Part shown: positions 17,612-61,978 of the stretch, one piece after another
Position numbering within the stretch: position 1 is the first letter of the stretch
Layout of the letters: the number at the start of each line of letters is the position of its first letter
Assembly (NCBI GenBank): GCA_964641945.1
Contig: CAZXLQ010000001.1
Coordinates: 13,725 to 77,724 of the forward strand
From: an uncultured Clostridia bacterium
GTDB taxonomy: Bacteria; Acidobacteriota; Blastocatellia; UBA7656; JADIYM01
Length of the DNA stretch: 64,000 nt
Direction of reading: 5' to 3'
Program-made: the position numbers and the translations under genes
The notes under the pieces: generated by a model
Seen by the model: only the letters and a program-made list of their open reading frames with translations
Databases searched by the model: none
What the model was told of the DNA's origin: nothing

Positions 17612-17639
17612 TTGACACGGTTTGAGACGGTGCTAGATT
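17612..17639 (+). promoter_or_regulatory. sigma70-like promoter TTGACA-N16-TAGATT, leaderless start at 17646
   Basis: sits in an unusually AT-rich 160-nt island (17486-17645) with GATACGA x2 direct repeat. Confidence 0.5.
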
Positions 17640-17645
17640 CCGGTC

Positions 17646-18185
17646 ATGGGCCTGCGAAACCCGACCGATGACGACGCAGCATTGGCATTCGCCGCGCACG
17701 ACTGCGCGCTCCGAGAAGCACACAAGGAGATCGAGCGACTTGGCTCCGAGCTGAACTTTGCTCGTGACGGGCTGCGTGCCTGGGAGGCGGATGCGCTGCT
17801 GGCGATGAAGCAGCGCGATGCGGCCCAAGAACACATCCACGGTCTGGAGGCCGAGGTCGATCGGCTAGAGGCAAAACTCGCGGCGCTGGTGGAAGCGGCA
17901 TCTCACCTGGAGCGACGCATCACCTACTCGGACACGAGCGGCATCTGGTACCTCGTGCCAGACCCAGGACAACCGCGGCTTGCTGCGCTCCGCTCCGCCC
18001 TCTTGGACCTCGTCAGCGAAGCCGCCGCCTACACCGCGAGTGTGGAGGCGCGAACGTTGCGAAGGGCTGCCGAGTGGCTCGCGGGGTCACCCGCACCATC
18101 GCGAGGCGTGCGGTCGGCAGCCGACTGGCTCCGCACCGAAGCACAAAAGCGGGAGGCTCATGTGCGACCGACCTCGAAGCCGTAA
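17646..18185 (+). CDS. coiled-coil protein (hypothetical)
   Basis: heptad-rich Ala/Glu/Leu sequence. Confidence 0.55.
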   Translation: MGLRNPTDDDAALAFAAHDCALREAHKEIERLGSELNFARDGLRAWEADALLAMKQRDAAQEHIHGLEAEVDRLEAKLAALVEAASHLERRITYSDTSGIWYLVPDPGQPRLAALRSALLDLVSEAAAYTASVEARTLRRAAEWLAGSPAPSRGVRSAADWLRTEAQKREAHVRPTSKP

Positions 18186-18188
18186 AGC

Positions 18189-18635
18189 ATGTACCAAACC
18201 AAGAAAACGCGAGCCCTGTCCAACGACCTTGCCCTTGCTACCGGACGCACTGCTGCCTTGCTGCGAGAGGCAACCGGGCTCTCTCAGGCTGCTGTCGCCA
18301 AACGCCTCGGCATCGCTCGTCGCAACTACGCTCGCTTCGAGGCTGGGGAGCATGAACCGATGCTGTCGACGATTGTTCGCCTCGCCCACGCCCACCAGTT
18401 CTCTCCAGCGTATGTCGTCTCGCTGGTGCTTGGGGCGGCACAGCCTCCATTGCAGATCGGCGCCGAGTGCGTGGTCGACAACGAGTACGAGGACGAAGTC
18501 GTCATTGTTCACCCGTGTGTCGCCGTGGATGGCAGCGAGGCCTACGCATGCCGCGACAAGTCCGGAAGGACTCAGGCGATTCGACGTTCCAACTTGCATC
18601 CGCGCTCCAGCTTTCCAACGAAGAAGAGGCCATGA
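18189..18635 (+). CDS. XRE-family helix-turn-helix transcriptional regulator
   Basis: LSQAAVAKRLGIARRNYARFEAGEHEPMLSTIVRLA. Confidence 0.7.
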   Translation: MYQTKKTRALSNDLALATGRTAALLREATGLSQAAVAKRLGIARRNYARFEAGEHEPMLSTIVRLAHAHQFSPAYVVSLVLGAAQPPLQIGAECVVDNEYEDEVVIVHPCVAVDGSEAYACRDKSGRTQAIRRSNLHPRSSFPTKKRP

Positions 18636-19024
18636 ACACCAAGGACCTTCCCGACGACACCTTGCTCCCGGGCCATCAATACACGCTCGGTGAGCAGCGA
18701 GAGACCATTCGCAAGATGCGAGCGATCAACAGCGACTTCTACGCGATGGTCTTTTCGGCCAGCATGGGCTCGCGCTGCCACGCGTTCGTGGAGTTCTGCG
18801 GCCTCCAGGCCAAGTTCATCGACATGTGCGAGGCCGCGCTCAACCAGGGCATCGAGTTCGCCTTCGCCAATCAGCACGGATCTGTTTCCTGGCCGCTCGA
18901 CACACACCACGCCGCATACCTCGGCGAGAAGTTCCAGTGCATCTACGGTTTCGCACTCGGGCCCAACCCAGAGCTGCGACAGACGTTTCTCGAAGCTGGG
19001 ATCGGGAAGGAGACGGGCAAATGA
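18632..19024 (+). CDS. hypothetical protein
   Basis: ATGA overlap; internal Met with AAGAAGAGG RBS. Confidence 0.5.
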   Translation: MNTKDLPDDTLLPGHQYTLGEQRETIRKMRAINSDFYAMVFSASMGSRCHAFVEFCGLQAKFIDMCEAALNQGIEFAFANQHGSVSWPLDTHHAAYLGEKFQCIYGFALGPNPELRQTFLEAGIGKETGK

Positions 19025-19392
19025 ACTTCGGACAAGCGCTCGAAGTGCTCAAGGCAGGCAGGCGCGTCGCTCGCGACGGGTGGAACGGCAAGGGTATGTG
19101 GCTGGTGCTCGTGAAGCCACGCGTCTCGTACGGGGCGGCGGAGGAGGAGGAGGTGACGTACCTGGTCGGCTTGCCGGCCGGAGTTGCGAGAATGCCAAAC
19201 TGGCGGGACGCGCGTTTCGCGGAGTGGGACGCGCGTTTCGCGGAGTGGCTATCCGGTGACGCGGAAGTGCAGCAGTCGGCGCGCCTGCTCCCGTGGATCG
19301 GGATGAAGACGGCGGACGGTGGCTTCGTGCCGTGGCTCGCGTCACAGACGGATCTGCTCGCTGAGGACTGGGCCGAGGTGCCAACCTCATGA
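19021..19392 (+). CDS. DUF2829-like protein (family that includes Thoeris anti-defence Tad2)
   Basis: MNFGQALEVLKAGRRVARDGWNGKGMW .. LLAEDWAEV; RBS GGAAGGAGA; contains 21-nt in-frame tandem duplication DARFAEW x2. Confidence 0.55.
   Translation: MNFGQALEVLKAGRRVARDGWNGKGMWLVLVKPRVSYGAAEEEEVTYLVGLPAGVARMPNWRDARFAEWDARFAEWLSGDAEVQQSARLLPWIGMKTADGGFVPWLASQTDLLAEDWAEVPTS
19208..19249 (+). repeat. 21-nt perfect tandem duplication inside DUF2829 gene
   Basis: ACGCGCGTTTCGCGGAGTGGG x2. Confidence 0.8.
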
Positions 19393-19423
19393 CCGAACAG
19401 GGCCAGAAGCCGCGGAGGCTCAG

Positions 19424-19732
19424 TTGACCGACGAAACGCGGATCGACGGTCGTTGTCAACGGTGCGAGGGCGCCTGCTTCTCGTTCGCGGTCGAAGGCGT
19501 CGGCTTGTGGCGGCGGTGGCTCGGCGCCTACATAGGCGGCGCTCCGCCCAAGCGCGACCGCATGACGTGCCTTGTGTGCCTCACGCCCGAGGAGCTGGCC
19601 CGCGTCGAGCGCATGAACCCAAAGCAGGCAATCGCGCCGCTTCTGAGCCGCATCGAAGCGGCCCGGGGCGGAGAAACGACACATGACGAGACAGGACGAC
19701 GAAACGAAGCAGACGACGATGGAACCGGGTGA
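19424..19732 (+). CDS. hypothetical Cys-containing protein (TTG start)
   Basis: GGAGG 6 nt upstream of TTG; CQRCEGAC..CLVC. Confidence 0.35.
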   Translation: MTDETRIDGRCQRCEGACFSFAVEGVGLWRRWLGAYIGGAPPKRDRMTCLVCLTPEELARVERMNPKQAIAPLLSRIEAARGGETTHDETGRRNEADDDGTG

Positions 19733-19910
19733 GCTGTCGCTGACGCATCTGCGGAAGGCCATCAGCTCCGCACGCAAACTCGTCGACCACTACCGTCGGC
19801 AGAACCCGGATCCCCGTGAAGGGCGCCAGCTCGCCATCGTCGCCACGCATCTCGAAGACGCCGAGCTGCACATCGTTGCGGCGACGGTTGGCGGCGTGGA
19901 GAAGCTGTGA
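19683..19910 (+). CDS. hypothetical protein
   Basis: 75-aa ORF; start uncertain. Confidence 0.35.
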   Translation: MTRQDDETKQTTMEPGELSLTHLRKAISSARKLVDHYRRQNPDPREGRQLAIVATHLEDAELHIVAATVGGVEKL

Positions 19911-20143
19911 GACGCCCAGAGTACGTCCACTGCGCCCAGATGGGCCTCTGGGACGGCAGTGTCCCGCTGAGCAAGACCTGGTGCGGTCGCGTCGACACGC
20001 CGAAGGACGAGTGGCAGTTCGAGAGCGCGAACCACGCATTACTGAGCGGCAGATCTCGATCCATGCTCTGTCCCGAATGCGCCACGGCCATCAAGGAAGC
20101 TCTGCGGGCAGTCGCCTACAGGCCAAGAAGGAAGTCTGCGTGA
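19907..20143 (+). CDS. hypothetical protein
   Basis: 78 aa; CPEC pair. Confidence 0.4.
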   Translation: MRRPEYVHCAQMGLWDGSVPLSKTWCGRVDTPKDEWQFESANHALLSGRSRSMLCPECATAIKEALRAVAYRPRRKSA

Positions 20144-20430
20144 CCAGTCGGGCTGAGGGGGTTCTTGCTCGGCTCAAGGACCCGGTCCCGTGGACAACGA
20201 TGGACGGTCGCGTGATGACCGTTCGGGACATGACAGACTCGCACCTTCGTAACTCGATCCGGTACATCGCACGCGTGGTTCGTCGACACAGGCCAGCGTT
20301 TGCTGGCGCCACACTCACGACCCTGCTCAGCTACGACAACGCCGAGAAGGCCATCCCATCCTACATGCACTCCGCCATCCCGGCACTCATCGAAGAGTGG
20401 CACGGCGCGGGCACGACCTGCTCAAGCTGA
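20141..20430 (+). CDS. hypothetical protein (GTG start)
   Basis: AAGGAAG RBS. Confidence 0.45.
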
Positions 20431-20491
20431 ACCTCAGCAACCTGTTCGGCGACCCTGGCAAGCCCATCGGCAGCGACCCCTGAAAGAAACC

Positions 20492-20833
20492 ATGTCCAAG
20501 CTCGATCCCCTCCTCATCGAAGGCATGCTCATGGCCGTCATCCGGCCCAAGGACCCTGGTCTTGCCATCGAGGCCGCACGAAAGGTCACCGAAGACCAGA
20601 ACCTGGGCCTGATCTCTCGCGACGAAGCGCACAGCCGCTTCAACGAGATCCTCTCGATGCAGGAGTACACCTTCCTCGGCCTTCTCGGGCCGCAGCAAGA
20701 AGTTCTCGACCAAGAAGGAAACATCATCGGCCAGATGCAGCCAGGGGACTCGTTCGTGCCGTACACACAGCTCGCCGCTGCCGCTGAAGTCTCCGACGCG
20801 ATGAAAGCCGTCGAGGCGAAGAGGGAGAACTGA
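20492..20833 (+). CDS. hypothetical protein
   Basis: GAAAGAAACC RBS. Confidence 0.5.
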   Translation: MSKLDPLLIEGMLMAVIRPKDPGLAIEAARKVTEDQNLGLISRDEAHSRFNEILSMQEYTFLGLLGPQQEVLDQEGNIIGQMQPGDSFVPYTQLAAAAEVSDAMKAVEAKREN

Positions 20834-20843
20834 CGTGGAACGG

Positions 20844-21005
20844 ATGTTGAAGCTCGCTGAAGTCGAGAAGATGCTGTCGATCAGCCGAACCACGCTGAAG
20901 AGATGGATCTACGCCAAGAAGATCCGAGCCACGAAGGTCGGCCGCGACTGGCGCATCAGCGAGAATGAGGTCGAGACGATCCGTGCGGGGCTGAGGAGAG
21001 CATGA
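20844..21005 (+). CDS. excisionase/MerR-like helix-turn-helix DNA-binding protein (53 aa)
   Basis: MLKLAEVEKMLSISRTTLKRWIYAKKIRATKVGRDWRISENEV; below ORF-track size cutoff. Confidence 0.55.
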   Translation: MLKLAEVEKMLSISRTTLKRWIYAKKIRATKVGRDWRISENEVETIRAGLRRA

Positions 21006-21667
21006 GCGGCACGAAGGTTCTGTCGAGCGTCCGGCGCCAATCCGACGAGTACAGCATCCGCTTCGACGACCGCTTCGGATGGATCGTTGCCCATGTCAGC
21101 GATGCCACCGGCGTACTCTCCATCGCCAGCGATTGGGGGAACTGGAGCCACCGCTGGGACACGCGACACCTGGGCTTCCCGACGCTGACCGAGTTCATTC
21201 TCAAGAGGCCTGACGTTCACTACCTGGCCAACAAGCTCATCGGCTACGGACGAGACCGTCAGGTGAGCATCGCCAAGACGCGTCAGTCCTTTCGTGAGAC
21301 AGTCTGTTCCAACCGACGCGCCAAGCTGCTGTCTCGTGTCAAGGCAGAGGAACTGTGGGCCGAGGTCGGGCTGTGGGAGGGCGGAGATCTTCCTGGCGAC
21401 TTCACCTGCGAGGATCTTGTCTACGAGGACACGTCCGAGTTCATGAACCTCAAAGAAATCGTGCTGCCTGCTCTTCTCAATGCGATGCGGAACAACCCTG
21501 CCAAGGCGGAAGCTGCGATGACGGACCACGAGGCTGCGGTGAGCAAGATTCGCGAGACCTACGAATCCGGCGGACCAGTTCTCGGGCTGCACAGCCGCGC
21601 CGACGTTGGTGTGCTGCTTCGTGAGATCGCTCGCCTGGAAGAGAAGCTCCGCCGCCAAGAAACATGA
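21002..21667 (+). CDS. hypothetical protein
   Basis: 221 aa. Confidence 0.55.
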   Translation: MSGTKVLSSVRRQSDEYSIRFDDRFGWIVAHVSDATGVLSIASDWGNWSHRWDTRHLGFPTLTEFILKRPDVHYLANKLIGYGRDRQVSIAKTRQSFRETVCSNRRAKLLSRVKAEELWAEVGLWEGGDLPGDFTCEDLVYEDTSEFMNLKEIVLPALLNAMRNNPAKAEAAMTDHEAAVSKIRETYESGGPVLGLHSRADVGVLLREIARLEEKLRRQET

Positions 21668-21722
21668 CGTGATGGGCGGGAATCCAATGAGTCGCACAGG
21701 TTCCGTACTGGGAGGGAAAGTT

Positions 21723-22271
21723 ATGAACCTCTCCGAGTGGTACCAGTTCGAGACCTGCCTGGAGGCGCAGCTCACCGGGACGCTTGTGCTCCCCGGAGCC
21801 ATGTGGAACAGGCACGAAGATTTTCGTCAGCAAGCCCTCCTTCATGGCTGGTCTGCATCGTTCGTAGACGGAACGGTGGACGACCAGTTTACGGCTCCGG
21901 AAGCACAGATGAGAGCCCTTGCACCACATGTTCTTGTGACGTTGTCGGACGAAGGTGCCGACCGAACTCTCTATCGAACTCATCTCGACCGGCTGCTCTC
22001 GTCCCCGCTGGAGGAACGCGTTGACCGCCTGGAAAAGTGGTTCGAGGCTCTGCTCAACGAGAAGGGCCGCGAAGCCGCAAAAAGGCTGGGCGCCGACCTC
22101 GATGAAGAGGAAAGCTCGCTTGACTCTAAGCGATTCAGCCCGCCGTTCATGGTTCAGTTTGGATCTCGCATCCGCGTGCATCTGGAAGTTCAGCAGGGCG
22201 CTCCGCGACTGACTCAGCCAGCGATCATCCGCATCTGCCTGATCGGCCTCAAGAAGAGGGAAATTAGGTGA
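21723..22271 (+). CDS. hypothetical protein (start uncertain; 21672 alternative)
   Basis: GGGAGGGAAAG RBS before MNLSEWYQ. Confidence 0.5.
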   Translation: MNLSEWYQFETCLEAQLTGTLVLPGAMWNRHEDFRQQALLHGWSASFVDGTVDDQFTAPEAQMRALAPHVLVTLSDEGADRTLYRTHLDRLLSSPLEERVDRLEKWFEALLNEKGREAAKRLGADLDEEESSLDSKRFSPPFMVQFGSRIRVHLEVQQGAPRLTQPAIIRICLIGLKKREIR

Positions 22272-22549
22272 AACGATCGAAGGACGACATTCTCGGCATC
22301 ATGCGCGAAGCCAACGAGGATGCAATGCTTGCCGAGGGGTTCGAGGACGCGTTCCTTGGACCTGCGGTTCGATGCGGTCAACAGCCGCTCGCCGCCTACT
22401 CCTACGAGAGAGCGGTCCAAGTGCTGATCGACCGTGACGGGATGACCCGCGAAGAAGCCACGGAGTGGATGGACTTCAACGTTGTCGGCGCCTGGGTAGG
22501 TCCGGGGACGCCGATCTGGATCTACGAACCCCAGGATGACAATGACTGA
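22268..22549 (+). CDS. hypothetical protein
   Basis: 93 aa. Confidence 0.5.
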   Translation: MKRSKDDILGIMREANEDAMLAEGFEDAFLGPAVRCGQQPLAAYSYERAVQVLIDRDGMTREEATEWMDFNVVGAWVGPGTPIWIYEPQDDND

Positions 22550-22877
22550 CCAGAGCGACGAGATCTTGGACCCGGGTTCCATTCCTCACGCAAACACTGC
22601 TCATGCCTCACCCGCTCGAAAGGCACTCGGCCGTCTCGACGGGCTCGATGACTTCGACAAGATCATCGACATGCTCTACGAGTGGAAGCGGTACGCCAAA
22701 GAGCTGAAGTTCAACGAGATGCTGTGGACCTTGTACGCCAGCGACTCAAGTAGCGAGGAGGCAGTTCTGAAGACACTGCAAAATGAGGTCGCCCAGGCCA
22801 GAGCCAACAGAATCGATCGTGCCATCGCGAAGATGGGCTTGGACGAGGCCGAGCGCATTCTGGGACTGGAACGATGA
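22536..22877 (+). CDS. hypothetical protein
   Basis: 113 aa. Confidence 0.5.
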   Translation: MTMTDQSDEILDPGSIPHANTAHASPARKALGRLDGLDDFDKIIDMLYEWKRYAKELKFNEMLWTLYASDSSSEEAVLKTLQNEVAQARANRIDRAIAKMGLDEAERILGLER

Positions 22878-23356
22878 GTCCGGCGAATGACCAGAGCGTG
22901 TCGAGCGCCTTGGGCCGCCTGGGAGTCGTTCGCGTGGCGTGGCGTGCCGGGTTCGCCGTGTACTCCGTCAAGACACCTCTTGGGCTCCATGATGTCTGGA
23001 ACGATCACCGCAGGTCCGGCACGTTTGGGTTCTACGACTGGATCTGCTCTGGTGCGAAAGACGGTCAATGGTACGCGCCCGTGGTGTTCCACTACTGCGA
23101 GAAGTGCGACCTCGGCGGAGCTGCGATCTACGTCGAGATGCGAGGCCGCGTCGTGTGTTCCTGCGGGAACATCGACGCCGTACCTCTTCAGCTTTCTGGG
23201 CTCCCAACCGAACCACCCTGGTGGTGCGCCGTTTGCGGAAAGCTGAACGACTCACCGAGGAGACTCGTTCGCGAGGGCTGGAGAAGTCCGTTCTACCTCT
23301 GCGGACCGTTCTGTGCGGATCTGTTCAACCAGATCGTACCCGATCCCATCCGCTGA
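22874..23356 (+). CDS. Cys-rich hypothetical protein
   Basis: CEKC..CSCG..CAVC..CGPFC. Confidence 0.5.
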   Translation: MSPANDQSVSSALGRLGVVRVAWRAGFAVYSVKTPLGLHDVWNDHRRSGTFGFYDWICSGAKDGQWYAPVVFHYCEKCDLGGAAIYVEMRGRVVCSCGNIDAVPLQLSGLPTEPPWWCAVCGKLNDSPRRLVREGWRSPFYLCGPFCADLFNQIVPDPIR

Positions 23357-23386: not shown

Positions 23387-23395
23387 TGTCAGACA
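23387..23395. promoter_or_regulatory. TGTCAGACA palindromic operator-like site
   Basis: intergenic, upstream of gene 23461; followed by TACTGT. Confidence 0.45.
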
Positions 23396-23806: not shown

Positions 23807-24682
23807 ATGGGAACGCAGCTTCTCCCCGGCGAGCGGGGAACGTACTTCAAGATGGACCCCGACGCTCTGGTGATCGTCGGTCTCGACACGCCTCACAAGT
23901 CCGGCGAGCACCCGCTCTGGGACGAACGCATTCTGCTGCCGCTCGATGAGTCCATGGTCAAGAACATCATGGCGCTCGGAGTTCAGGAGAGCGTGCGCGT
24001 CGAAGTCGAGAAGGGAACTGACGGGTCGAAGGTTCCCTACGTCGTCGACGGCCGCCGCCGCGTCATGCACGCACGCGAAGCCAACAAGCGGCTGAAGACC
24101 CTCGGAGAACCACCGGTCACTGTTCCGGTCATCGCGGAGAAGAACACCAACGCCGAGGACCTGTCCATGCTGACGATCTCGCTCAACGAGATCCGCAAGG
24201 ACGACCCGATGATGGTGAAAGCCGCCAAGGCTGGCCGCATGCAGGCGCGCGGGATGAGCACCAAGCAGATCGCCCTCGCCTTCGGCGTTGCCGCCGGCAC
24301 CGCTGATCTGTTCCTGCGTCTGAACGGAGCCCACGACGAACTGAAGAAGGCGGTCGCCGCAGACAAGATCACTGCCACGGCAGCCGGCAAGCTCTCCGAG
24401 CTGCCTCGCGACGAGCAGCCCGCTGCCCTCAAGAAGCTCCTCGACGAAGCCAAGGCCAGGGGCGAGAAGCGCGGCAAGGTGAAGGATGCGGCTGCCATCG
24501 CGACCTCGCGAAAGAAGGGCGGCGAAGCCCGTCCAGCGCCCGGGAAGCGCATCCTGCTGCGTGTGGTCTCCAACGGAACGAGCGTGCTGCACGACGAGTT
24601 CATCCGCGGGGTCCGGTTCGCCATGGGGGATCTCGATCCTCGCGCCGTCTCCGGACTCTCCGCTCTGATGACGAAGAAGTGA
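23807..24682 (+). CDS. ParB-like nuclease-domain / HTH protein
   Basis: ParB N-domain-like block PYVVDGRRRVMHAREAN and HTH MSTKQIALAFGVAAGTADLFLRL. Confidence 0.75.
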   Translation: MGTQLLPGERGTYFKMDPDALVIVGLDTPHKSGEHPLWDERILLPLDESMVKNIMALGVQESVRVEVEKGTDGSKVPYVVDGRRRVMHAREANKRLKTLGEPPVTVPVIAEKNTNAEDLSMLTISLNEIRKDDPMMVKAAKAGRMQARGMSTKQIALAFGVAAGTADLFLRLNGAHDELKKAVAADKITATAAGKLSELPRDEQPAALKKLLDEAKARGEKRGKVKDAAAIATSRKKGGEARPAPGKRILLRVVSNGTSVLHDEFIRGVRFAMGDLDPRAVSGLSALMTKK

Positions 24683-29552: not shown

Positions 29553-29579
29553 TGTCAGACACGCATCTTATGTCGGACA
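29553..29579. promoter_or_regulatory. paired operator-like sites TGTCAGACA and TGTCGGACA, 18 bp centre-to-centre
   Basis: divergent region between kinase gene and basic-protein gene. Confidence 0.45.
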
Positions 29580-35176: not shown

Positions 35177-36510
35177 TCTTCAGGGACGATGCGGCTCAGC
35201 CCCGCCCTCACCGCCGGCAGGCAGCTCTCTGCGCTGAACATCTCACGGGTGGCCGAGGCTGCGGCGCGGTCGAGATACCGGCCTCGGTCGAACTGGGTCT
35301 GCATCCCTGCTGCCAGGTCGTCCAGCTTGTAGGTGCCCCACCGCGTTCGCTTGTCGAACATGAGAGCGATGCGAGCGACTTCTGGGCCGACCTCGGTGAG
35401 CTGGTAGGGGAAGGTGGTGTCTCGGGTCGATCCGGACTTCTGACGAATCTCCTCGACCATCTGCCCGACGGCACCGTAGGCGCTCGTGACCATCGGCACC
35501 CCCTGAGCTTTCGCCCAGACATGCGGAATGCCAAGGCCCTCCCCGTAGGACGGGTTCGCGTAGCAGTCCAAGTCGCCGAGCCACTCGATGACCTGCTGGT
35601 CCGTCTGGTCGGTCCCCAGCTCGAAGCCGATGCGAGGCATCTTTCCGGACATCGGAAACCCAGAGTCACCGAACTCTTTCGCGATCTCCGCGATCTCCGC
35701 CGTGAGCTTCTCCTTGAACTTCTTGATGGTGAGGTTTTCACCGAATGCGCTCGTCTTGAGGACGAGCTTCACCGGCTGCTCGCGAGCAAACGCCGAGAAG
35801 TAGGCTCGCACAAGATCGTGCATGCCCTTCCGCTTCTGCCACGTACCAAGCACGCCGAAGATGAATGGATCGTCATGCGTGACCGGCCGATTCTTCCGCT
35901 CAGCCAACACGTCGAGTGCCGTCATCGACCATGGCCCCTCCGTCAGCATCGGCCTGACCACGTGGACCACGCTTGCCGGAACGTTGGACTGGACGAAAGC
36001 GTCACGAACGAACTCGCTCACGACCCAGATGCCAGCAAAGACCGGACCGGTCGCGAGGCTCCGGCAGTAATCCGAGACCCGATCGCCCTCGAACGCGCAG
36101 TACGGGACGATCTTCGGCGCCATCTCCTCCATCTCCACGGCCACCTCGGGCGGCCACGAGCAGAACAGCGCCTTCGGATGCCCAACGCCTTCCTTCACCC
36201 ACTGGAAGAGCAGGTCGTATCGGTCGGGCGGAAAACGCTCGATGTCGATGTCCACATTGCGATGCGGCACCAGCGCCGTCGGGATCCCAAGCGACCGCGA
36301 GAGCATCCACTGTAGCGACAGCGCGTGCGTCGCGTACCCCGTACGATGATGGCTTCCCCACGTGTGCCAGAGCCCATGCACGTCGTACCCGGGAGCCGGC
36401 GGCGCGACGTAGTCGCGGAACTTCTGCCCCGTCGGACGCATCTGCGACGCAACCAGCGCCTCGAACTCTTCTGGCGTCCGATCCTTGTATTCCTGGTACT
36501 TGTCCGACAT
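35149..36510 (-). CDS. glycosyltransferase-like protein (GT-B, family 1/4-like)
   Basis: YGEGLGIPHVWAKAQGVPMVTSAYG. Confidence 0.6.
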   Translation of the reverse strand: MSDKYQEYKDRTPEEFEALVASQMRPTGQKFRDYVAPPAPGYDVHGLWHTWGSHHRTGYATHALSLQWMLSRSLGIPTALVPHRNVDIDIERFPPDRYDLLFQWVKEGVGHPKALFCSWPPEVAVEMEEMAPKIVPYCAFEGDRVSDYCRSLATGPVFAGIWVVSEFVRDAFVQSNVPASVVHVVRPMLTEGPWSMTALDVLAERKNRPVTHDDPFIFGVLGTWQKRKGMHDLVRAYFSAFAREQPVKLVLKTSAFGENLTIKKFKEKLTAEIAEIAKEFGDSGFPMSGKMPRIGFELGTDQTDQQVIEWLGDLDCYANPSYGEGLGIPHVWAKAQGVPMVTSAYGAVGQMVEEIRQKSGSTRDTTFPYQLTEVGPEVARIALMFDKRTRWGTYKLDDLAAGMQTQFDRGRYLDRAAASATREMFSAESCLPAVRAGLSRIVPEEWVKEWKLA

Positions 36511-36521
36511 GAGGGTGTCAG

Positions 36522-36550
36522 ACAGTACATGGGCAGTCAGACAGGTGCAA
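36522..36550 (-). promoter_or_regulatory. promoter TTGCAC-N17-TACTGT with two TGTCWGACA sites, 11 nt before ATG 36510
   Basis: minus-sense TTGCACctgtctgactgcccatgTACTGTctgacaccctcATG. Confidence 0.5.
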
Positions 36551-38896: not shown

Positions 38897-39382
38897 TCAC
38901 CCGGCCCGGCTCGTTCGGCGCTTTCGTGCGGGCTTCTGACGCCCGACTGGGCGACTCGTTCGACGACGTGGCTTCACATCTCCTGGCAGCAGCGACGCGA
39001 GCGACCTTCTGACCCTGAGCGAGATGATTGGTCGCACCGGCTTGCCGCTCTTCCCGAGCACTGCGACGCACCGCCCAACAGGGCTGACCACGGCGATCAG
39101 CAAATCGAGCAAGCTGTCGCCAAACTTCTGCGCCTCGTAGGCGGCGTACTTGAGGGCCGTGCGGCGGTCATAGACCTTTGCCGAAAGTACGTGCGGCTTC
39201 GCCCACAACGAAGCGGCTCCGGCATCGTCGACTCGGAGAAAGACGACCTTGTACACCTGACCTTCTGGCTCAGCCTGCCGAACCGGCACCGCATCGACTT
39301 CGGGCGTCTCTTCCTCAGCCGGCACTTCGGTCTCATCCATGAGGTCGGATGTACCACTTGTCTGACAGCAGATGCAAGCCAC
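38897..39382 (-). CDS. hypothetical protein (start uncertain)
   Basis: 161-aa ORF. Confidence 0.45.
   Translation of the reverse strand: MACICCQTSGTSDLMDETEVPAEEETPEVDAVPVRQAEPEGQVYKVVFLRVDDAGAASLWAKPHVLSAKVYDRRTALKYAAYEAQKFGDSLLDLLIAVVSPVGRCVAVLGKSGKPVRPIISLRVRRSLASLLPGDVKPRRRTSRPVGRQKPARKRRTSRAG
39359..39367. promoter_or_regulatory. TGTCTGACA operator-like site
   Basis: at 5' end of minus gene 38897-39382. Confidence 0.4.
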
Positions 39383-41997: not shown

Positions 41998-42026
41998 AAT
42001 CTACGCACGACTGTCTGACAAGTCAA
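41998..42026 (-). promoter_or_regulatory. promoter TTGACT-N17-TAGATT with TGTCAGACAG operator in spacer, 9 nt before ATG 41988
   Basis: minus-sense gcgcTTGACTtgtcagacagtcgtgcgTAGATTcgacgcaccATG. Confidence 0.55.
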
Positions 42027-43407: not shown

Positions 43408-43416
43408 TGTCTGACA
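43408..43416. promoter_or_regulatory. TGTCTGACA operator-like site abutting ATG 43401
   Basis: TTGACT lies 24 nt further upstream (minus sense). Confidence 0.45.
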
Positions 43417-45559: not shown

Positions 45560-45587
45560 ATAGTAAGGTTCGTGTCTGACAAGTCAA
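45560..45587 (-). promoter_or_regulatory. promoter TTGACT-N16-TACTAT with TGTCAGACA in spacer, upstream of tRNA 45473-45545
   Basis: minus-sense cttcTTGACTtgtcagacacgaacctTACTATcgacc. Confidence 0.5.
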
Positions 45588-46789: not shown

Positions 46790-46817
46790 AATCTAGCCAC
46801 CCACTGTCTGACAGTCA
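46790..46817 (-). promoter_or_regulatory. promoter TTGACT-N16-TAGATT with TGTCAGACAG in spacer, 10 nt before HNH ATG 46779
   Basis: minus-sense gcgTTGACTgtcagacagtggtggcTAGATTgccacgcgtcATG. Confidence 0.55.
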
Positions 46818-46892
46818 ACGCCCACGGAGGGACTTGAACCCCCACGAGACCCAGGTTCGTAGCCTGGCGCTCTATCCATTGAGCTACGCGGG
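46818..46892 (-). tRNA. tRNA-Arg(ACG)
   Basis: loop CTACGAA, acceptor pairs with one G-U. Confidence 0.7.
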
Positions 46893-48710: not shown

Positions 48711-48714
48711 GGAC

Positions 48715-49003: not shown

Positions 49004-49007
49004 GTAG

Positions 49008-49660: not shown

Positions 49661-49686
49661 CGTCCTTGGGAGCGAGAGGAGTCGAA

Positions 49687-49940: not shown

Positions 49941-49960
49941 GATCTTGTTCCTGTTGCTGT

Positions 49961-50041
49961 TGGAGCCGCTTGGAATCGAACCAAGTCTCCCCGGAGGGAG
50001 CGGATTTACAGTCCGCCTGCGACACCAGCCGCATCGACTCC
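49961..50041 (-). tRNA. tRNA-Tyr(GTA), class II with variable-arm hairpin
   Basis: loop CTGTAAA, variable stem ctccc/gggag, acceptor pairs with one G-U. Confidence 0.7.
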
Positions 50042-50249: not shown

Positions 50250-51700
50250 CTACTCATGCCAGATGTCCGACAGGCCGTCAAGCGAAAAAGTGATCGTTCT
50301 TTCGACCCACACTTCCCTACGAATCGTCGGGGCTCTCGATCGGCGCTCGTCGGGTCGGACCCTCCAGTTTGCCATCCGGACCACATTCTTCTTGTAGGAC
50401 TTCGGGCACTGGGGTCATCCCTCTTCGGGCCGCTCAGGTCGCTGCACAACCGACCCGAGCGAGCACCACGCTCGTACCGAGCGCCTTCACATTCTGAGCC
50501 GCGTTCACGTCACGGTCCACCACGTATCCGCACGGGCAGCGGTGCTCACGGACGCTCAGGTCCTTGGGCACCACGATTCCGCACCGGCTACAGCGCTGGC
50601 TCGTGCCGCGAGCATCGACCGCCACACACCACTTGCCGGCACTCTCAGCCTTGCAAGCTACGGCATGCACCAGCGTGCTCCACGCAGCATCCGTCACCGA
50701 CTTGGCCAGCACACCAGCCGCCAAGCCCTTCACGTTCAAGTCTTCGACTGCGATGACGTCATACTTCGCCACCAACACGCACGCGAGCTTGCGTGCGAAG
50801 TCGAGCCGTTGCTGCCGCACGTGGGCATGCGCCTTGGCCACGAGCCGCTGAGCGACCCTGGCCCCCTGCGTGGACTTCTGCCCGCGGCGCCGTCGCCGCG
50901 CCAGGCGCTGTTGGCGCATGGCCAACTGGTCTTCGGCCTTTCGGAAGAACCGCGGCGCGGCGATGGTCTCGCTGTCGCTCGTCGCCACCAGCGACGTAAG
51001 CCCCACGTCGATTCCGACCACGCTCTGAGCGGCCTCGGCTGCCGGCACCTTTGGTGGTGCGGCGCCCAGGTCGCAACTGAAGCACACGAACCAGCGGCCG
51101 GTCGCTTCGCGGCGGACGGTAACGTTGCGGATGGCACCCGTGAGCGACCGGTACTCGTGGAACCGCACCAGGCCGAGCTTGGGGATACGGACGTGCGCCG
51201 AGCGCGTGCCGCGCTGAGCGGCGACCGGCGCAACTCGGCCGACCTCGAAGCTGTCGTAGCGAGAAAGCGACCGGAAGCGAGGGTAGCCCGGCTTCTGGCC
51301 CGCCTTCACGCGGCGGAAGAACGCCTGGAAGGCGCGATCGCAGCGACGGAGCGCCGAACGTTCGACCTCGACGGGGATGCTGGCGATGATCTCGTCGGAA
51401 GACCGGAGCGAGGTCAGCTCGGCGGTTTGGCTGTTGTAGGTCACGATCGGCGCGGGCTTGCGCTCGACGCCGCGATCGGTGGCCGCCTGCCGCTGGCGCT
51501 TCTCGTGCTCCCACGCGTCTCGCCGGTGCTGGAGCGCGGCGTTGTAGAGCTGCTGGCAGGTCCGCAGCCAAGAACCGAGCGTGGTCTCCTGGGCGACGGT
51601 CGGATGTAGCGGGTAGCGGAAGGTGCGGAGCAAGAGGGGTATGGTGTGAAGGGCAAAGTCAAATGTCAAATGCCTCCACTACCCGGACTCGCACAGGCGA
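50250..51700 (-). mobile_element. IS200/IS605-family TnpB-only element (IS1341-like remnant; ends not defined)
   Basis: tnpB with no tnpA; expected omegaRNA region downstream of tnpB 3' end at about 50250-50480. Confidence 0.45.
50434..51669 (-). CDS. tnpB: TnpB (OrfB) RuvC-like transposon-associated nuclease
   Basis: N-terminal RTFRYPLHPT..QLYNAAL; C-terminal zinc finger CSRCG..CPCGYVVDRDVNAAQN. Confidence 0.85.
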   Translation of the reverse strand: MTFDFALHTIPLLLRTFRYPLHPTVAQETTLGSWLRTCQQLYNAALQHRRDAWEHEKRQRQAATDRGVERKPAPIVTYNSQTAELTSLRSSDEIIASIPVEVERSALRRCDRAFQAFFRRVKAGQKPGYPRFRSLSRYDSFEVGRVAPVAAQRGTRSAHVRIPKLGLVRFHEYRSLTGAIRNVTVRREATGRWFVCFSCDLGAAPPKVPAAEAAQSVVGIDVGLTSLVATSDSETIAAPRFFRKAEDQLAMRQQRLARRRRRGQKSTQGARVAQRLVAKAHAHVRQQRLDFARKLACVLVAKYDVIAVEDLNVKGLAAGVLAKSVTDAAWSTLVHAVACKAESAGKWCVAVDARGTSQRCSRCGIVVPKDLSVREHRCPCGYVVDRDVNAAQNVKALGTSVVLARVGCAAT

Positions 51701-57282: not shown

Positions 57283-57620
57283 CCGAGCAAGCGTAGCTCA
57301 CGGGTCCGCCTGATGGCGCCAGGAAAGTCGGCGCAGACAGAACGGATGGCTTCGGTTTTGGACGTAATGCCTTCCGGAGCTGCCAGCTCTTCCATTCCCA
57401 TCCCACACTCAGCGCACACTACCGCGTCATCGGACCGGTGTTTCATTGTGAGCACACCGATTCGAGCCAGCTCCTGCTCGAAGTCCAGTTCGCCGCGCTC
57501 GGACCTCTTCTTCAGTCTGGCGATCGTCCCGTTGGCCACCGCCCGCTCTCGCTTCAGCGCACGCTCCAGCGTGTGCTTCGGCTCGAACGTGCAGACCATC
57601 ACCCGGACCGGCGCGGTCAC
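57279..57620 (-). CDS. hypothetical protein
   Basis: 113 aa; CAECG. Confidence 0.5.
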   Translation of the reverse strand: MTAPVRVMVCTFEPKHTLERALKRERAVANGTIARLKKRSERGELDFEQELARIGVLTMKHRSDDAVVCAECGMGMEELAAPEGITSKTEAIRSVCADFPGAIRRTRELRLLG

Positions 57621-57844
57621 GCCAGCGACAGGTCCTGAGGACGGAACTCGAACGTCTTGCCGCTCCGCAAGGCGACCTTCACGCGGGCGATCCTGCCTTC
57701 CAGGCGGACGCCCACGACCTTGCCGACCGCGCTCTCCTTCAACCCGTGCGTCTTCTGCATCGCAACGGGGACACGAACGGTCACCTTGGCGTTCTTCTTC
57801 TGCGTGATTTCTGCGAGGTTCACTGTTGGCTCCTGTCGAGTCAC
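57617..57844 (-). CDS. small beta-rich putative DNA-binding protein divergent from integrase (candidate regulator)
   Basis: GTG start; KVTVRVPVAM..VVGVRLEGRIARVKVAL. Confidence 0.5.
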   Translation of the reverse strand: MTRQEPTVNLAEITQKKNAKVTVRVPVAMQKTHGLKESAVGKVVGVRLEGRIARVKVALRSGKTFEFRPQDLSLA

Positions 57845-57860: not shown

Positions 57861-57869
57861 TGTCAGACA
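57861..57869. promoter_or_regulatory. TGTCAGACA operator-like site in int / divergent-regulator intergenic region
   Basis: between GTG 57844 (minus gene) and int ATG 57910. Confidence 0.45.
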
Positions 57870-58951: not shown

Positions 58952-60346
58952 TCATTTCCGAACGCGGGTGGTCCCAAGCATCGCACCACGATCTTCCGGA
59001 TCGACATCCGGAGGCCACTTGGTGCGCGAATCGTATCTCGCACGGTACAAATCGGTCTCGAAAAGGTTTGCGCCGAAAAGATTCGATCCGTATAGAGCGG
59101 CACCAGAGAGGTTGGCGTGCGAGAGGTCGGCGTGCGAGAGGTCGGCGTGCGAGAGGTCGGCGTGGGCCATCCTTGCTCTCGAAAGGTCCGCGCCAGACAG
59201 GTTCGTGTTGCTCAGTTGACGGCCGATCAGGTCTGCGCCGGCCAGGTCTCGTCCCGCCAGTGATGCGCGAGAAAGCAGAATCCCGTTTGGCTCGCCGCCC
59301 TTTCCTCTATCGACGAACTCCACGACCATCGACCGGATCGCCTCGACCACAGCTTTGACTTCGTGCCCTCCCAATGGCGGCTCGTTGTCCTGTCCCGCTT
59401 GCAGCACGTAGGTGGCGAACTGAGCGTCCCCGATGTTCGAGTTGGCTTGCCCGAAGATCTGCAAGAAGCTCCCGCCCCAACGATTCTCATTTGACGGCTT
59501 CCACTCCATCGTGACGTACGGGACGCCGTCCGGGTCTCGTAGCGAGTAGATCACGCTATCGCCGTGCTCCACCGCCTCGCAGTATGTTCCGACGCAGTGG
59601 CTGAGGGCTTTCCCCTCAGGCTCCAGCTCCCGCCTGCCTCGCAGCTCTTGCACGGTCCATCCGGTCGGGAACCGGTAGACGACCTTGCCCTGGCGCACCT
59701 TCTTCGAGTAGCGGAAGGTCTTGATCGCTTCGAGGACTTCCGCGAGCGACTTCTTCATCAGATCGATGCGATTCAGCTTCGCCCACTGAGCGATGGCATT
59801 GCCTGACCGGCGGAGCCTTCCAAGAGCCTCCTCGTAGTCACGGTACTCGTCCAGCGGTGCAAGGTTCTCCTCGATTGCCTTCTCCACAGCCGTGATGGTG
59901 TGCTTCGAGAGCTTGCTCAGCTCACGAGCCACCCACGGAAAAATCCCGTCTGCCTCGTGCGGCTCACGCATGGCACCGCCAGCGAACGTCGGCAACGCGA
60001 TCGTCTCAAGCAGCAAACGAAGAAGATGCCGATGGCCCGCAGGACCAACCGGCCAATAATCGTGCTCTACGAGGCGTACGTATCCGAGGTTTGAGATGCC
60101 CAACCATTGAAAACTTGGTCGCGGAAGACCTGTGACGAGAGAGCCGCCCGAGTAGAGATCAAGAAGGTCTCGGCGACCTTTCCCATGGGCCTCGTAATAC
60201 GCGTCCTCGACCTCTCGCCACGACTCGTCGATTCCGATGGTTGGGAAGATCACGCTGAGCGTGTCGAGCACGACCCATGGTTGCTTCTCGATGTACATCT
60301 TGGTGATGTACTGAAGCCGGTCGATCGCTGCGTTCTTCGTCAGCAC
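58952..60346 (-). CDS. PcfJ-like domain protein with C-terminal pentapeptide repeats (paralog of 116-1780)
   Basis: WTVQELRGRRELEPEGKALSHCVGTYCEAVEHGDSVIYSLRD; ADLSHADLSHADLSHANLSGAAL repeats; GTG start 1 nt after upstream stop with GGGGG RBS. Confidence 0.6.
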   Translation of the reverse strand: MLTKNAAIDRLQYITKMYIEKQPWVVLDTLSVIFPTIGIDESWREVEDAYYEAHGKGRRDLLDLYSGGSLVTGLPRPSFQWLGISNLGYVRLVEHDYWPVGPAGHRHLLRLLLETIALPTFAGGAMREPHEADGIFPWVARELSKLSKHTITAVEKAIEENLAPLDEYRDYEEALGRLRRSGNAIAQWAKLNRIDLMKKSLAEVLEAIKTFRYSKKVRQGKVVYRFPTGWTVQELRGRRELEPEGKALSHCVGTYCEAVEHGDSVIYSLRDPDGVPYVTMEWKPSNENRWGGSFLQIFGQANSNIGDAQFATYVLQAGQDNEPPLGGHEVKAVVEAIRSMVVEFVDRGKGGEPNGILLSRASLAGRDLAGADLIGRQLSNTNLSGADLSRARMAHADLSHADLSHADLSHANLSGAALYGSNLFGANLFETDLYRARYDSRTKWPPDVDPEDRGAMLGTTRVRK

Positions 60347-60347
60347 G

Positions 60348-61190
60348 TCACCCCCGACGGTTGCGACGCATCGAGCGTCGCCAGATCGCCCATCCCAGAA
60401 CACCTGCACCAGCAAGAACGGCGATGCCGCCGACGATCGGAACCGCTGACGACCTAGAAACCCCGATCGCCGCGGCTCCTGCCGCTTCTACGGCCGATCG
60501 CACACGCTCCCATTCGGGAGCCCACCGGTCGTACGCCTGTCGCAACCGAGTGACGTAGACAGAACAGTCCGAGCAGCCGTTGTACCTGCGAGCCAGCTCG
60601 TTCCAGTCCATCGACCTCGCAGCGGTCTGAGCGCGAGGGTTCGCCCGCATCCACGCCGCCAGTAGCCGTTCGCTGACCAGAGACGGGTCGCTGTCGAACC
60701 CTCTCACGGCCGCAGCCGCGTCGTCTCCGAAGAGAGACAGCAGATGGCCGCCCAGCACCTGGTAGCTGCCCCAGGATGTCGCCTTCACGGCTTCGCGAGG
60801 TGCGAGCCTGAAAGCTCGGTCGAATGCCGCTCGGTTCGTTTCAGACCCGGTACAGGATGCTGAACGCGAGATGCGGCACGGTTCGAGCCCGTTCGCTGAT
60901 CGCCAGTCGTTGTTGCCCGGCGTGTAGGGCACCGCAGCCATGTCCGCGGCTGACATGGCGGCACGGATCTGGGGACCGGACGTTCCGGTCGGCAACCCTT
61001 TTCGCATACGCCAGTAGAGATGTGGCTCAAAACGCACCACCGACGGGTTCGATCCAGATTCGACCGACCGAATGGATCGCAGAGCGGTGATGGGGATCTG
61101 TGCCTCGTTCGCAAGAGCGAGGTCTCTTCGCCAACCTTCCAGGTCTGCAACCAACGCGGCCTGTCCGAGGCCGCTCACCGCGTAGGACAT
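60348..61190 (-). CDS. DUF3380-type N-acetylmuramidase-like protein with C-terminal TM anchor (candidate endolysin)
   Basis: TSWGSYQVLGGHLLSLFGD resembles the SWG.FQIMG muramidase motif; C-terminal AVPIVGGIAVLAGAGVLGWAIW; start trimmed to MSYAVSG. Confidence 0.5.
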   Translation of the reverse strand: MSYAVSGLGQAALVADLEGWRRDLALANEAQIPITALRSIRSVESGSNPSVVRFEPHLYWRMRKGLPTGTSGPQIRAAMSAADMAAVPYTPGNNDWRSANGLEPCRISRSASCTGSETNRAAFDRAFRLAPREAVKATSWGSYQVLGGHLLSLFGDDAAAAVRGFDSDPSLVSERLLAAWMRANPRAQTAARSMDWNELARRYNGCSDCSVYVTRLRQAYDRWAPEWERVRSAVEAAGAAAIGVSRSSAVPIVGGIAVLAGAGVLGWAIWRRSMRRNRRG

Positions 61191-61224
61191 GGGGCCGATC
61201 CTATCATCGGAAGGGACTGGACGC

Positions 61225-61233
61225 TGTCTGACA
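61225..61233. promoter_or_regulatory. TGTCTGACA operator-like site upstream of muramidase-like gene
   Basis: 35 nt upstream of ATG 61190 in divergent region. Confidence 0.4.
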
Positions 61234-61253
61234 GCCGGTGCATCATCGCGGGC

Positions 61254-61742
61254 ATGTCGGACAGGAAGCCCCCGCCCAGCCCGTTCCCAGCCGAAGACGA
61301 CGACTCGATCATCTTCGAGAAGAAGCCGGAAGCGTCCGCATTCGAGCGGGCCGCGCAAGAGCTGACCTCGGCTCGCGAAGCGGTCCGTCTCCAGATGGAG
61401 AATGAGCGGTTCTTCGATGTCGAGTTCTGCATCAAGAACCACAAGGTCTGGTGGTCTCACTCGCAGAGCGAGATTCCCGCTCATGCTCTCGCCGACCTGA
61501 TCATCGAAGCCGTACAGAGGCTGCCCACCGAGGCCATCGAGTACAAGCCGAGGACGGCGGTCATCGCAGATCTCGCCACGAAGCAGGTCACCTATGACCG
61601 GTACGTCAGGTTCAACTGGTCGGATCAGAAGATCCAGACCTCGCTTTCGCCCAACGAAGGGGAGATCTTCCTGAGCGTCATGTCGGCACTCGTCGAAGAC
61701 CTCAGACGAAAAGCACAGACCCTCACAGGAGGAACCAACTGA
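61254..61742 (+). CDS. hypothetical protein
   Basis: start at MSDRKPPP. Confidence 0.45.
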   Translation: MSDRKPPPSPFPAEDDDSIIFEKKPEASAFERAAQELTSAREAVRLQMENERFFDVEFCIKNHKVWWSHSQSEIPAHALADLIIEAVQRLPTEAIEYKPRTAVIADLATKQVTYDRYVRFNWSDQKIQTSLSPNEGEIFLSVMSALVEDLRRKAQTLTGGTN

Positions 61743-61978
61743 TGGCGATGATGGACAAAGACGAGTTCGCTGAATGGCTGGAGGAGCACAAGGACGAAGC
61801 GCTCGACGGTCTGTCAGACAGACCCCGATCGCTGTCTCGATGGCTTCTTGCCTTCTACGAAGAGACGAAAATCCTGGCACCGAAGCCGTATCAAGAGAGC
61901 GTCACGGTCCCAGACGATGACGACGACCTGGATGAGGACGGAGACCTGGACGAAGACGACGAGGAGGAGGGCGAATGA
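61742..61978 (+). CDS. acidic small protein
   Basis: ATGA overlap; D/E-rich tail. Confidence 0.45.
   Translation: MAMMDKDEFAEWLEEHKDEALDGLSDRPRSLSRWLLAFYEETKILAPKPYQESVTVPDDDDDLDEDGDLDEDDEEEGE
61812..61820. promoter_or_regulatory. TGTCAGACA site inside coding sequence (GGTCTGTCAGACAGACC)
   Basis: extended 17-nt near-palindrome within gene 61742-61978. Confidence 0.3.

Follow-up and report, generated by a model that had tools for sequence, protein, structure and literature searches.

A short palindrome recurring in predicted promoters of a large uncultivated phage as probable operator of a lineage-specific regulator

The stretch of 64,000 nucleotides (nt) of the contig CAZXLQ010000001.1 that was analysed here, which we refer to as the window, contains multiple copies of the palindrome TGTCWGACA, whose distribution, promoter context and conservation in related phages are the subject of this study. 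The window has a G+C content of about 62% and encodes two PcfJ/pentapeptide proteins, an SNF2 helicase, a UvrD-like helicase, two glycosyltransferases, a TnpB/Cas12f-like protein, a tyrosine integrase, a muramidase, HNH endonucleases, a Dam-class methyltransferase and a Tad2-like anti-defence protein, together with a ParB-like protein, a regulator of the XRE family and an HTH_17 protein. It also carries 27 tRNA genes on the minus strand between 43441 and 50041, with one extra gene assigned by Rfam at 47823-47895. Homologues of window proteins are found on viral contigs of 105-190 kb, which identifies the window as part of a large uncultivated phage. Near-identity searches detected no close DNA relatives among deposited phages or plasmids, returning only a tRNA match or nothing, whereas proteins identical to those of the window are located on short contigs from several public metagenome runs such as SRR15237815. 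A tblastn search with the first large open reading frame (116-1780) retrieved pentapeptide-repeat proteins only, and a search of cultured phages with the 300-residue protein p300 gave no match. Independent gene calls on metagenome contigs are in agreement with the starts used for p162, the muramidase and p147. The integrase gene, and this gene only, points to a lysogenic lifestyle of the phage.

Within the window, TGTCWGACA matches exactly at 11 positions compared to an expectation of 0.57 ± 0.83, and none out of 100 dinucleotide-preserving shuffles reaches this number, which bears out the recurrence described in a first-pass annotation of this DNA. The motif is the top over-represented 9-mer of the window, at 46-fold above the Markov expectation, and with a free central base (TGTCNGACA) the number of matches increases to 15 compared to 1.37 expected. 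Its information content is restricted to the nine bases, with a weak preference for C/G at positions ±5, and the flanks of different sites are mutually unrelated. Its orientation, which can be read from the central base only, is not uniform, since along the direction of transcription this base can be either A or T, depending on the promoter. A scan tolerating one mismatch adds 12 sites to the 11 exact ones, corresponding to chance level (23 in total versus 13.2 expected), and sites with two mismatches stay below expectation (116 versus 145). Despite this lack of a degenerate halo, four of the 12 one-mismatch sites (29571, 36501, 36535 and 61255) are found within 30 bp of an exact site, which argues for the reality of paired sites. 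The pairing described earlier is thus observed at three loci, with the glycosyltransferase gene having three sites and the loci at 29.5 kb and p162 two each, at irregular spacings of 15, 18, 19 and 30 bp.

As claimed initially, the sites are almost all intergenic, and they are biased towards gene starts. In a window that is to about 84% coding or tRNA, 10 of the 11 exact sites reside in intergenic DNA (binomial probability about 8e-8, on an approximate gene map), and the zone between -45 and +9 of gene or tRNA starts, which accounts for 10% of the window, holds nine of them (about 5e-8, by arithmetic from those fractions). Of the original site list, the 11 exact sites stand, with one coordinate shifted from 46804 to 46805, whereas the match at 61812..61820 is of doubtful function since it is located inside a gene coding for 78 residues (61742-61978, codons G-L-S-D-R) and has no counterpart in the related phage L159. 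Sites with a variant centre at 36501, 50264 and 61255 were added to this list.

Placement of the palindrome in predicted promoters

Promoters were defined as consensus matches with starts inferred from them, and for the numbering of site centres the -10 hexamer was set at -12 to -7. Between 28 and 64 kb, a consensus scan identifies three distinct sigma-70-like promoters (46818..46790, 45587..45560 and 42026..41998), in all of which the -35 hexamer is immediately followed by the motif. With relaxed criteria (TTGACN or TTGYAY, 16-19 nt, TANNNT), seven promoters are identified, four with the motif and three without (17612, 16510 and 11813), the three being all located in the left part of the window. 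Since these three promoters share a common design with the others but lack the motif, the palindrome is an addition to some promoters and does not belong to their core. The predicted promoters mostly stop 6-11 nt short of a start codon, and many first genes, which start 6-11 nt past the -10 hexamer, lack a Shine-Dalgarno sequence, while internal genes have GGAGG-type sites. This proximity and the missing Shine-Dalgarno sequences suggest that the transcripts would be leaderless or have very short leaders. The earlier description of operator-like sites within sigma-70-type promoters that end shortly before start codons is in agreement with these predicted layouts.

The centres of the sites are found near -44, -38, -30, -26, -25, -24, -24, -24, -22, -22, -17, -15, -5, +2, +6 and +11 of the predicted promoters, with 14 of the 16 site-promoter pairs falling between -30 and +11, the usual zone of repression. 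Outside of this range are only the promoters of the integrase and the muramidase, each of which shares its site with a divergent promoter. Such scattered register does not suit a recognition element of the polymerase or its sigma factor, and near-consensus hexamers (TTGACT-17-TAGATT) would require no activator. The motif is separated from the -10 hexamer by 0-27 nt, and spacer lengths are 16-18 nt. A role of the motif as -35 element (cTGACA) was discarded since the spacings do not fit, and so was that of an operator of the MerR type, which is placed in an over-long spacer of 19-20 bp.

In P42012 (41998..42026, minus strand), the site 42012..42020 is part of a 17-nt spacer: the -35 hexamer TTGACT is followed by the motif and 8 nt (TGTCAGACA gtcgtgcg), the -10 hexamer TAGATT and, after 9 nt, by the ATG of p300 at 41988. 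At 46805..46813, the last T of the -35 hexamer coincides with the first T of the motif, which precedes the -10 hexamer of the promoter 46818..46790 (TTGACT-17-TAGATT) by 9 nt, with the ATG of an HNH-type gene (46779) located 10 nt after the -10 hexamer. The site 45573..45581 abuts the -35 hexamer of the promoter 45587..45560 (TTGACT-16-TACTAT) and is followed by 7 nt, the -10 hexamer and another 14 nt. The motif is thus part of a promoter as proposed, but this promoter precedes the gene of tRNA-Leu(caa) at 45545 instead of a start codon.

Three sites are clustered at the glycosyltransferase promoter 36550..36522 (TTGCAC-17-TACTGT). An imperfect one with a single mismatch (36535..36543, AGTCAGACA) resides in the spacer, 1 nt after the -35 hexamer and 7 nt before TAC, while the exact site 36516..36524 covers the -10 hexamer, whose sequence TACTGT is completed by its first three bases, and the inferred start. 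Of the two sites annotated here as matches, that at 36535 is hence imperfect, and it is this copy that occupies the spacer position formerly ascribed to the exact one. The third, centre-variant site (36501..36509, TGTCCGACA on the plus strand) overlaps with the ATG at 36510 of the gene coding for a 453-residue glycosyltransferase, which follows the exact site after 5 nt. A similar enclosure of a -10 hexamer is observed at 29.5 kb, where the exact site 29553..29561 is located 3 nt downstream of TAAGAT and 3 nt upstream of the ATG (29549) of a minus-strand gene coding for 256 residues, and where a centre-variant site (29571..29579, TGTCGGACA), whose centre is 18 bp away, abuts the same hexamer from the upstream side. 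This pair is adjoined by an open reading frame on the plus strand (29647-29907), which would encode 86 residues extremely rich in Arg and Lys and which we regard as candidate gene only.

Sites are also found between divergent genes. In the 31-bp gap between p147 (minus strand, ATG 39340) and p91 (plus strand, ATG 39372), the site 39359..39367 is part of the arrangement TTGCAT, 4 nt, motif, 5 nt, TACATC, 7 nt, ATG. The site 57861..57869 separates p68 (minus strand) from the integrase gene (plus strand), with the layout TTGACT-N10-motif on the side of p68 and motif, 27 nt, TATCCT, 7 nt, ATG on the side of the integrase. In the 63-bp gap between the muramidase gene (minus strand, ATG 61190) and p162 (plus strand, ATG 61254), the site 61225..61233 serves a muramidase promoter of the form motif, 21 nt, TAGGAT, 7 nt, ATG and a p162 promoter of the form TGGACG, 1 nt, motif, 7 nt, CATCAT, 7 nt, ATG, with a second, centre-variant motif (61255..61263) overlapping the latter start codon. 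Of the remaining sites, 23387..23395 is placed over a -35-like TTGTCA (TTGTCA-17-TACTGT, plus strand) upstream of the p109-ParB-helicase genes, 43408..43416 is located 6 nt upstream of the ATG (43401) of a minus-strand gene coding for 80 residues with TTGACT found 14 nt upstream of the site, and the centre-variant site 50264..50272 follows 3 nt past TTGACG on the minus strand, in the interval that separates the TnpB-like gene from the first tRNA of the cluster.

The three promoters without motif are P17612 (17612..17639, plus strand, TTGACA-16-TG-TAGATT, 6 nt before the ATG at 17646), P16510 (16510..16538, plus strand, TTGACC-17-TAGGTT, 6 nt before the ATG at 16545) and P11813 (11785..11813, minus strand, TTGACA-17-TACCGT, 7 nt before an ATG). 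P17612 is the strongest promoter of the window and heads an operon on the plus strand (17612-23356), which codes for a coiled-coil-like protein of 179 residues, the XRE regulator, a Tad2-like anti-Thoeris protein (19021-19392, E = 1e-25) and the HTH_17 protein, and which displays a weak match to the Acb2/Tad1 hairpin at 19683-19910.

A second short motif, GTCGAAAG, is found eight times in the window compared to 3.2 expected (at 11818, 11842, 16499, 23400, 43421 and 50299, and also at 6895 and 62692). Copies of it precede the -35 hexamer of the motif-less P11813 and P16510 by 3-4 nt and the TGTCWGACA sites 23387 and 43408 by 4 nt. The same sequence precedes the p299 promoter in the related phage L163 and, either itself or as close variant, is found near the ribosome-binding site of p68 in L162, L163 and L187. 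This sequence could either be bound by a second regulator or form an upstream element of the promoter.

Conservation in related phages

Conservation of the sites in related phages, which had been suggested as a check, is pronounced. In the sister phage L151, whose nucleotide sequence is 88-93% identical, sites are kept at P42012, P39359 and the glycosyltransferase promoter. The spacer of its P42012 contains only two changes, both outside of the motif, and the imperfect site corresponding to 36535 is identical. More distant lineages with a G+C content of 59-67% (L159, L162, L163/L164 and L187) were reached through homologues of p68. Their proteins show identities to those of the window phage of 65-87% for p68, 65-79% for the integrase and 26-57% for p162, and in all of them the palindrome is found in both divergent regions, int/p68 and muramidase/p162. 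In an anchored comparison of the window phage with L159, L162, L163 and L187, all eight fixed bases are invariant at the p68 and the muramidase/p162 promoters in the five lineages, while only 8 and 7 of 50 flanking bases are, most of them in promoter hexamers.

The arrangement around the motif is retained as well. The layout TTGACN-N10-TGTCTGACAC of p68 is invariant in the five lineages. The p162 promoter reads -35, 1 nt, motif, 7 nt, CAYYMT, 6-7 nt and start across the lineages, and that of the muramidase reads motif, 21-24 nt, TA(G/C)(G/C)AT, 5-7 nt and ATG. In L187, which contains six TGTCNGACA sites in 20 kb, the p147 promoter (TTGCAC, 4 nt, motif, 5 nt, TACAGT, 7 nt, ATG) shares with that of the window the pattern TTGCAY, 4 nt, motif, 5 nt, TACAKY, 7 nt, ATG. 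The counterparts of the sites at 43408 and 23387 in the same phage are TTGACG-N14-motif and gcacTTGTCGGACAcg, the latter in unchanged layout. The second site over the p162 start codon is present in L159 but not in L162, L163 and L187.

Outside of this sub-lineage the motif is lost. In L158, whose p300 is 64% identical, the design of P42012 is kept but only the first half of the motif is present (TGTCAGGAC), and the motif is absent from relatives found via p300 at 61% identity or less and from other more distant relatives. Such invariance within a sub-lineage and loss outside of it is the pattern of a lineage-specific pair of regulator and operator. A 9-mer that is frequent in L124 proved to correspond to Leu-Ala-Lys codons. 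In L188/L189, where p68 is 37% and the integrase 51% identical, the int/p68 gap does not contain TGTCNGACA. In L189 another palindrome, TGTAGC-N6-GCTACA, is found at 9959-9976 upstream of the p68-like gene, as single copy in 20 kb, and no regulon of a replacement palindrome was seen in this more distant lineage. In scans of viral contigs, TTGACTTGTCAGACA, a sequence common to two window promoters, gave single chance matches only, and the pattern of the p162 promoter gave 17 matches, about chance level, with L169 as only true relative.

The 9-bp core of the window motif is also found in L167 (IMGVR_UViG_3300032329_000245), an unrelated phage contig of 40% G+C without protein homologues to the window, where between 528 and 8736 nine intergenic copies of the 15-bp palindrome TAC-TGTCWGACA-GTA (TACTGTCWGACAGTA) are contained within 13 kb, each upstream of a gene on the minus strand. 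The common core may reflect either convergence or a shared regulator family.

Neighbouring features of the locus

Immediately upstream of P42012, between this promoter and the gene 42657-43148, is a CRISPR-like array (42081-42548) that is composed of seven repeats of 35-36 nt ((G/A)TCGCAAGGGCTGCCCAGCGCCCTGAAGCTGGTGAC) with a period of 71-74 nt and six unrelated spacers of 36-39 nt. Its leader is probably on the right, with transcription from the minus strand, since substitutions are found in three of the four left-most repeats, with two in the second repeat. The array has no match among the CRISPR families of Rfam, its repeat no exact match in viral contigs and its spacers no match in the sequences searched, while in the sister phage L151 the repeat is found at the same place. 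Contigs assembled from short reads are without exception interrupted at the array. A single cas-like gene was seen in the window, which is located 8 kb away (50434-51669, minus strand) and codes for the TnpB/Cas12f-like protein of 411 residues with OrfB_IS605, Cas12f1-like TNB and HTH_OrfB_IS605 domains; it could either be a gene of an IS605-family transposon or the partner of the array.

The tRNA cluster (43441-50041, minus strand, 27-28 genes) is interspersed with genes of HNH endonucleases (44943-45455 and 46294-46779), and four motif-bearing promoter regions lead into it. The two PcfJ/pentapeptide genes (125-1780, plus strand, and 58952-60409, minus strand) form a paralogous pair, each coding for a PcfJ-like domain with C-terminal pentapeptide repeats. 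The second of them contains a 15-bp tandem repeat (59106-59164), and homologues are present in the relatives L163 and L189.

Interpretation, competing explanations and candidate binders

Taken together, TGTCWGACA is almost certainly a binding site for a transcription regulator, and we consider it likely that the palindrome, with a weak extension to CTGTCWGACAG, represents the operator of a symmetric, presumably dimeric and mainly repressing regulator of this phage lineage. A mainly repressing function is suggested by the location of the sites where the polymerase binds, their variable register, the copies flanking -10 hexamers and starts, the near-consensus quality of the promoters and the existence of operator-free equivalents. 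The operators would be built into promoters of the host RNA polymerase of the sigma-70/sigma-A type, whose transcripts would begin with the start codon or a few bases ahead of it. A bound regulator would cover either the -35 hexamer and spacer, the -10 hexamer and start site, or the first codons, and would thereby block polymerase binding or promoter escape. The resulting regulon would span about ten promoter regions in a block of roughly 40 kb (about 23-62 kb of the window), comprising the p109-ParB-helicase genes, a kinase-like gene, the glycosyltransferase/methyltransferase cluster, the p147 and p300 operons, four entry points to the tRNA/HNH cluster and the divergent pairs p68/integrase and muramidase/p162. 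The operator-free P17612, P16510 and P11813 would escape this control. The P17612 operon with its XRE, Tad2-like, weakly Tad1/Acb2-like and HTH_17 proteins would plausibly be expressed first or constitutively and supply the regulator of the operator-bearing promoters, which may act as lysogenic repressor, given the presence of an integrase, or as an early-to-middle switch.

Several observations weigh against this assignment. Promoters and start sites rest on consensus prediction, and the window covers only part of a genome whose full size is probably 150 kb or more. For muramidase and integrase, the site centres in the promoter, at about -37 to -45, are at a position typical for activators, and the distance of 7-9 nt between motif and -10 hexamer in five promoters is regular enough for an activator that is positioned there. 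The half-sites are 5 bp apart, which is atypical of helix-turn-helix dimers such as XRE. Finally, family scans of about 100 predicted proteins, which in the pooled scan cover the best 25 of 70 families, recognised no regulator of the ribbon-helix-helix, AbrB or WYL families nor any other binder of compact palindromes.

Among the alternatives, the motif might be a positive promoter element, where an activator of phage or host that binds near -25 switches on a temporal class of genes, in a similar manner as in T4, where the MotA box is located at -30, or in the actinobacterial PafBC system, whose RecA-NDp motif reads TGTCRGTG-N8-TANNNT. We regard this as rather improbable. The motif ends 7-9 nt before the -10 hexamer in five promoters, its first six bases TGTCAG fit TGTCRG, only TGTCAG is retained at this position in L158, and at the muramidase and integrase promoters the centres are near -38 to -44. 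Against these features stand a register extending from -44 to +11, with several sites over the -10 hexamer, the start site or the start codon, and three motif promoters that already contain near-consensus -35 and -10 hexamers at a distance of 16-17 nt. Furthermore, no WYL/PafBC-like or MotA-like protein is found among the families listed in the scans. While the TGTCRG found about 16 nt upstream of a TANNNT -10 hexamer in five window promoters resembles the PafBC-dependent arrangement, the RecA-NDp motif is described as non-palindromic (PMC6789036) and replaces the -35 hexamer, whereas here the motif is a palindrome with both half-sites invariant in relatives, which is found at variable distance to the -10 hexamer and combined with good -35 hexamers such as TTGACT. 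A PafBC promoter was rejected on account of this symmetry and register.

The motif could also be a centromere or clamp-loading site of the ParB-like protein, acting either as global regulator like KorB or in partition only, a proposal of low probability. The gene is present, an exact site (23387) overlaps with the promoter of its own operon, and KorB of plasmid RK2 is a ParB homologue that recognises 12 dispersed, promoter-linked copies of a palindrome centred on a single base. Conversely, the match of the window protein to a helix-turn-helix domain is weak (E = 0.001, under the Pfam cut-off), no solved homologue was found, no ParA gene is seen in the window and the best-conserved sites are 35 kb away from parB, beside int and muramidase. 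A peptide-pattern scan of viral contigs, including the two motif-bearing relatives IMGVR_UViG_3300017774_006254 of 161 kb and IMGVR_UViG_3300029288_000081 of 171 kb, did not retrieve a ParB relative, although this is a weak test that detects close relatives only. Of slightly lower probability still is the recruitment of a global regulator of the host by the phage lineage, by which phage expression would track the state of the host. It is favoured by the identity of the 9-mer in lineages whose proteins are only 26-87% identical, by the lack of a convincing phage-encoded binder and by the nine intergenic copies of TACTGTCWGACAGTA in the unrelated L167 of 40% G+C, and opposed by the absence of the motif in more distant relatives, as predicted for a phage-specific pair of repressor and operator. 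A full-text literature search did not find the motif as a described operator, returning primers and unrelated uses only, which is also at odds with a host regulator. Finally, we regard it as practically negligible that the recurrence is a functionless by-product of chance, of codon-driven repetition or of a copied promoter cassette. While S-D-K/R codons underlie three of the sites (36501, 61255 and 61812) and TTGACTTGTCAGACA is common to two promoters, the shuffles, the intergenic location and the invariance of the motif in lineages with diverging flanks argue against such origin, and the mutually unrelated flanks show that the sites did not arise by copying of a single cassette.

The proposed operator can be compared with several known systems. 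With lambda-type CI/Cro and P1 C1 operators it shares the presence of short, lineage-conserved and partly paired sites at many promoters over tens of kb, which overlap with -35, spacer, -10 or start. Lambda-type operators are 14-18 bp long and P1 C1 operators are asymmetric 17-mers scattered over P1, whereas here the core extends over 9-11 bp with half-sites 5 bp apart. The first-pass annotation had likened the sites to the stoperators of Cluster A mycobacteriophages, which in L5 are bound by gp71. These are asymmetric 13-mers that are oriented with transcription and largely block elongation away from promoters. The two systems indeed have in common a short motif with numerous intergenic copies, an actinophage-like genome rich in G+C and the proposed repression, but the likeness does not extend to the motif itself, which is a symmetric 9-bp palindrome with nothing beyond ±5 and no uniform orientation, and which overlaps core elements inside predicted promoters (14 of 16 within -30 to +11). 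The quoted similarity of TGACAAGTCAAG to the L5 core is accounted for by the reverse complement of the -35 hexamer TTGACT, which abuts the motif at two sites only (42012 and 45573).

The operator O_B of KorB from the IncP plasmid RK2 resembles the motif in its odd-length palindrome with free central base, in the about dozen dispersed copies, several of them in divergent promoters, and in the association with a ParB-family gene, which is part of the element and has the site 23387 upstream of its operon. O_B is longer (13 bp), ParB is here one of several candidates, and the window shows neither a KorA-like partner nor a ParA gene. Compact palindromes of 8-9 bp read in a single major groove and often found in adjacent copies are recognised by ribbon-helix-helix repressors such as MetJ (metbox AGACGTCT), Arc, Mnt and CopG, which match the compact format of the motif but not its irregular pair spacing, and no such protein was detected in the window among the best 25 of 70 families of the pooled scan.

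With respect to the protein that would bind the motif, a factor encoded outside of the window or by the host is quite possible, with a chance that stays somewhat below even. The XRE-family helix-turn-helix protein (148 residues, 18189..18635, plus strand) is a possible but less likely candidate. No other canonical regulator is found in the window, and among solved structures its closest relative is the N-terminal domain of ImmR from ICEBs1 (E = 0.007), while close relatives in viral contigs were not found in a peptide-pattern scan, a weak test that detects close relatives only. The ParB-like protein (291 residues, 23807..24682, plus strand), which matches phrog_1033 (E = 4e-31), is a doubtful choice, and the excisionase/MerR-like HTH_17 protein of 53 residues (20844..21005, plus strand) a very unlikely one. 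For p273 no solved relative was found, and a model of p162 obtained from three sequences has a predicted local distance difference test (pLDDT) score of 46.5, which is too low for use.

The basic protein p68 (68 residues, 57617..57823, minus strand), whose gene is always divergent from the integrase, is either a candidate binder, which we regard as unlikely though somewhat less so than for ParB, or a co-regulated gene. Of all candidates it is best conserved together with the motif, with 27 invariant residues, many of them Lys or Arg, and in each of the five lineages its gene is located behind the operator that shows the highest conservation. Its model is of good quality (pLDDT 86) and shows an SH3/Tudor/KOW-like barrel, which is not a classical DNA-binding fold, the structures matching it being generic SH3/Tudor/KOW barrels and unnamed phage proteins. 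We would give little, if some, credit to the idea that p68 either reads the palindrome itself, as a new structural class of sequence-specific repressor, or acts as a polymerase-binding partner together with the operator. If true, p68 would coordinate the integrase, lysis, DNA modification and the cluster of 27 tRNAs in an uncultivated phage clade with contigs of 150-170 kb.

The logic of repressor and operator is in itself a standard and familiar form of phage control. As operator of a lineage-specific regulator, the palindrome would chart the regulation of one section of a large uncultivated phage, covering about ten promoters including those of the 27-tRNA cluster, the integrase and the muramidase. 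It would divide the promoters of a single, apparently leaderless design into a class with operator and an operator-free class, the latter heading an operon that contains an anti-defence (Tad2-like) gene. Finally, a palindrome that is as compact and conserved may serve as bait for the regulator and as marker of the lineage in metagenomes.

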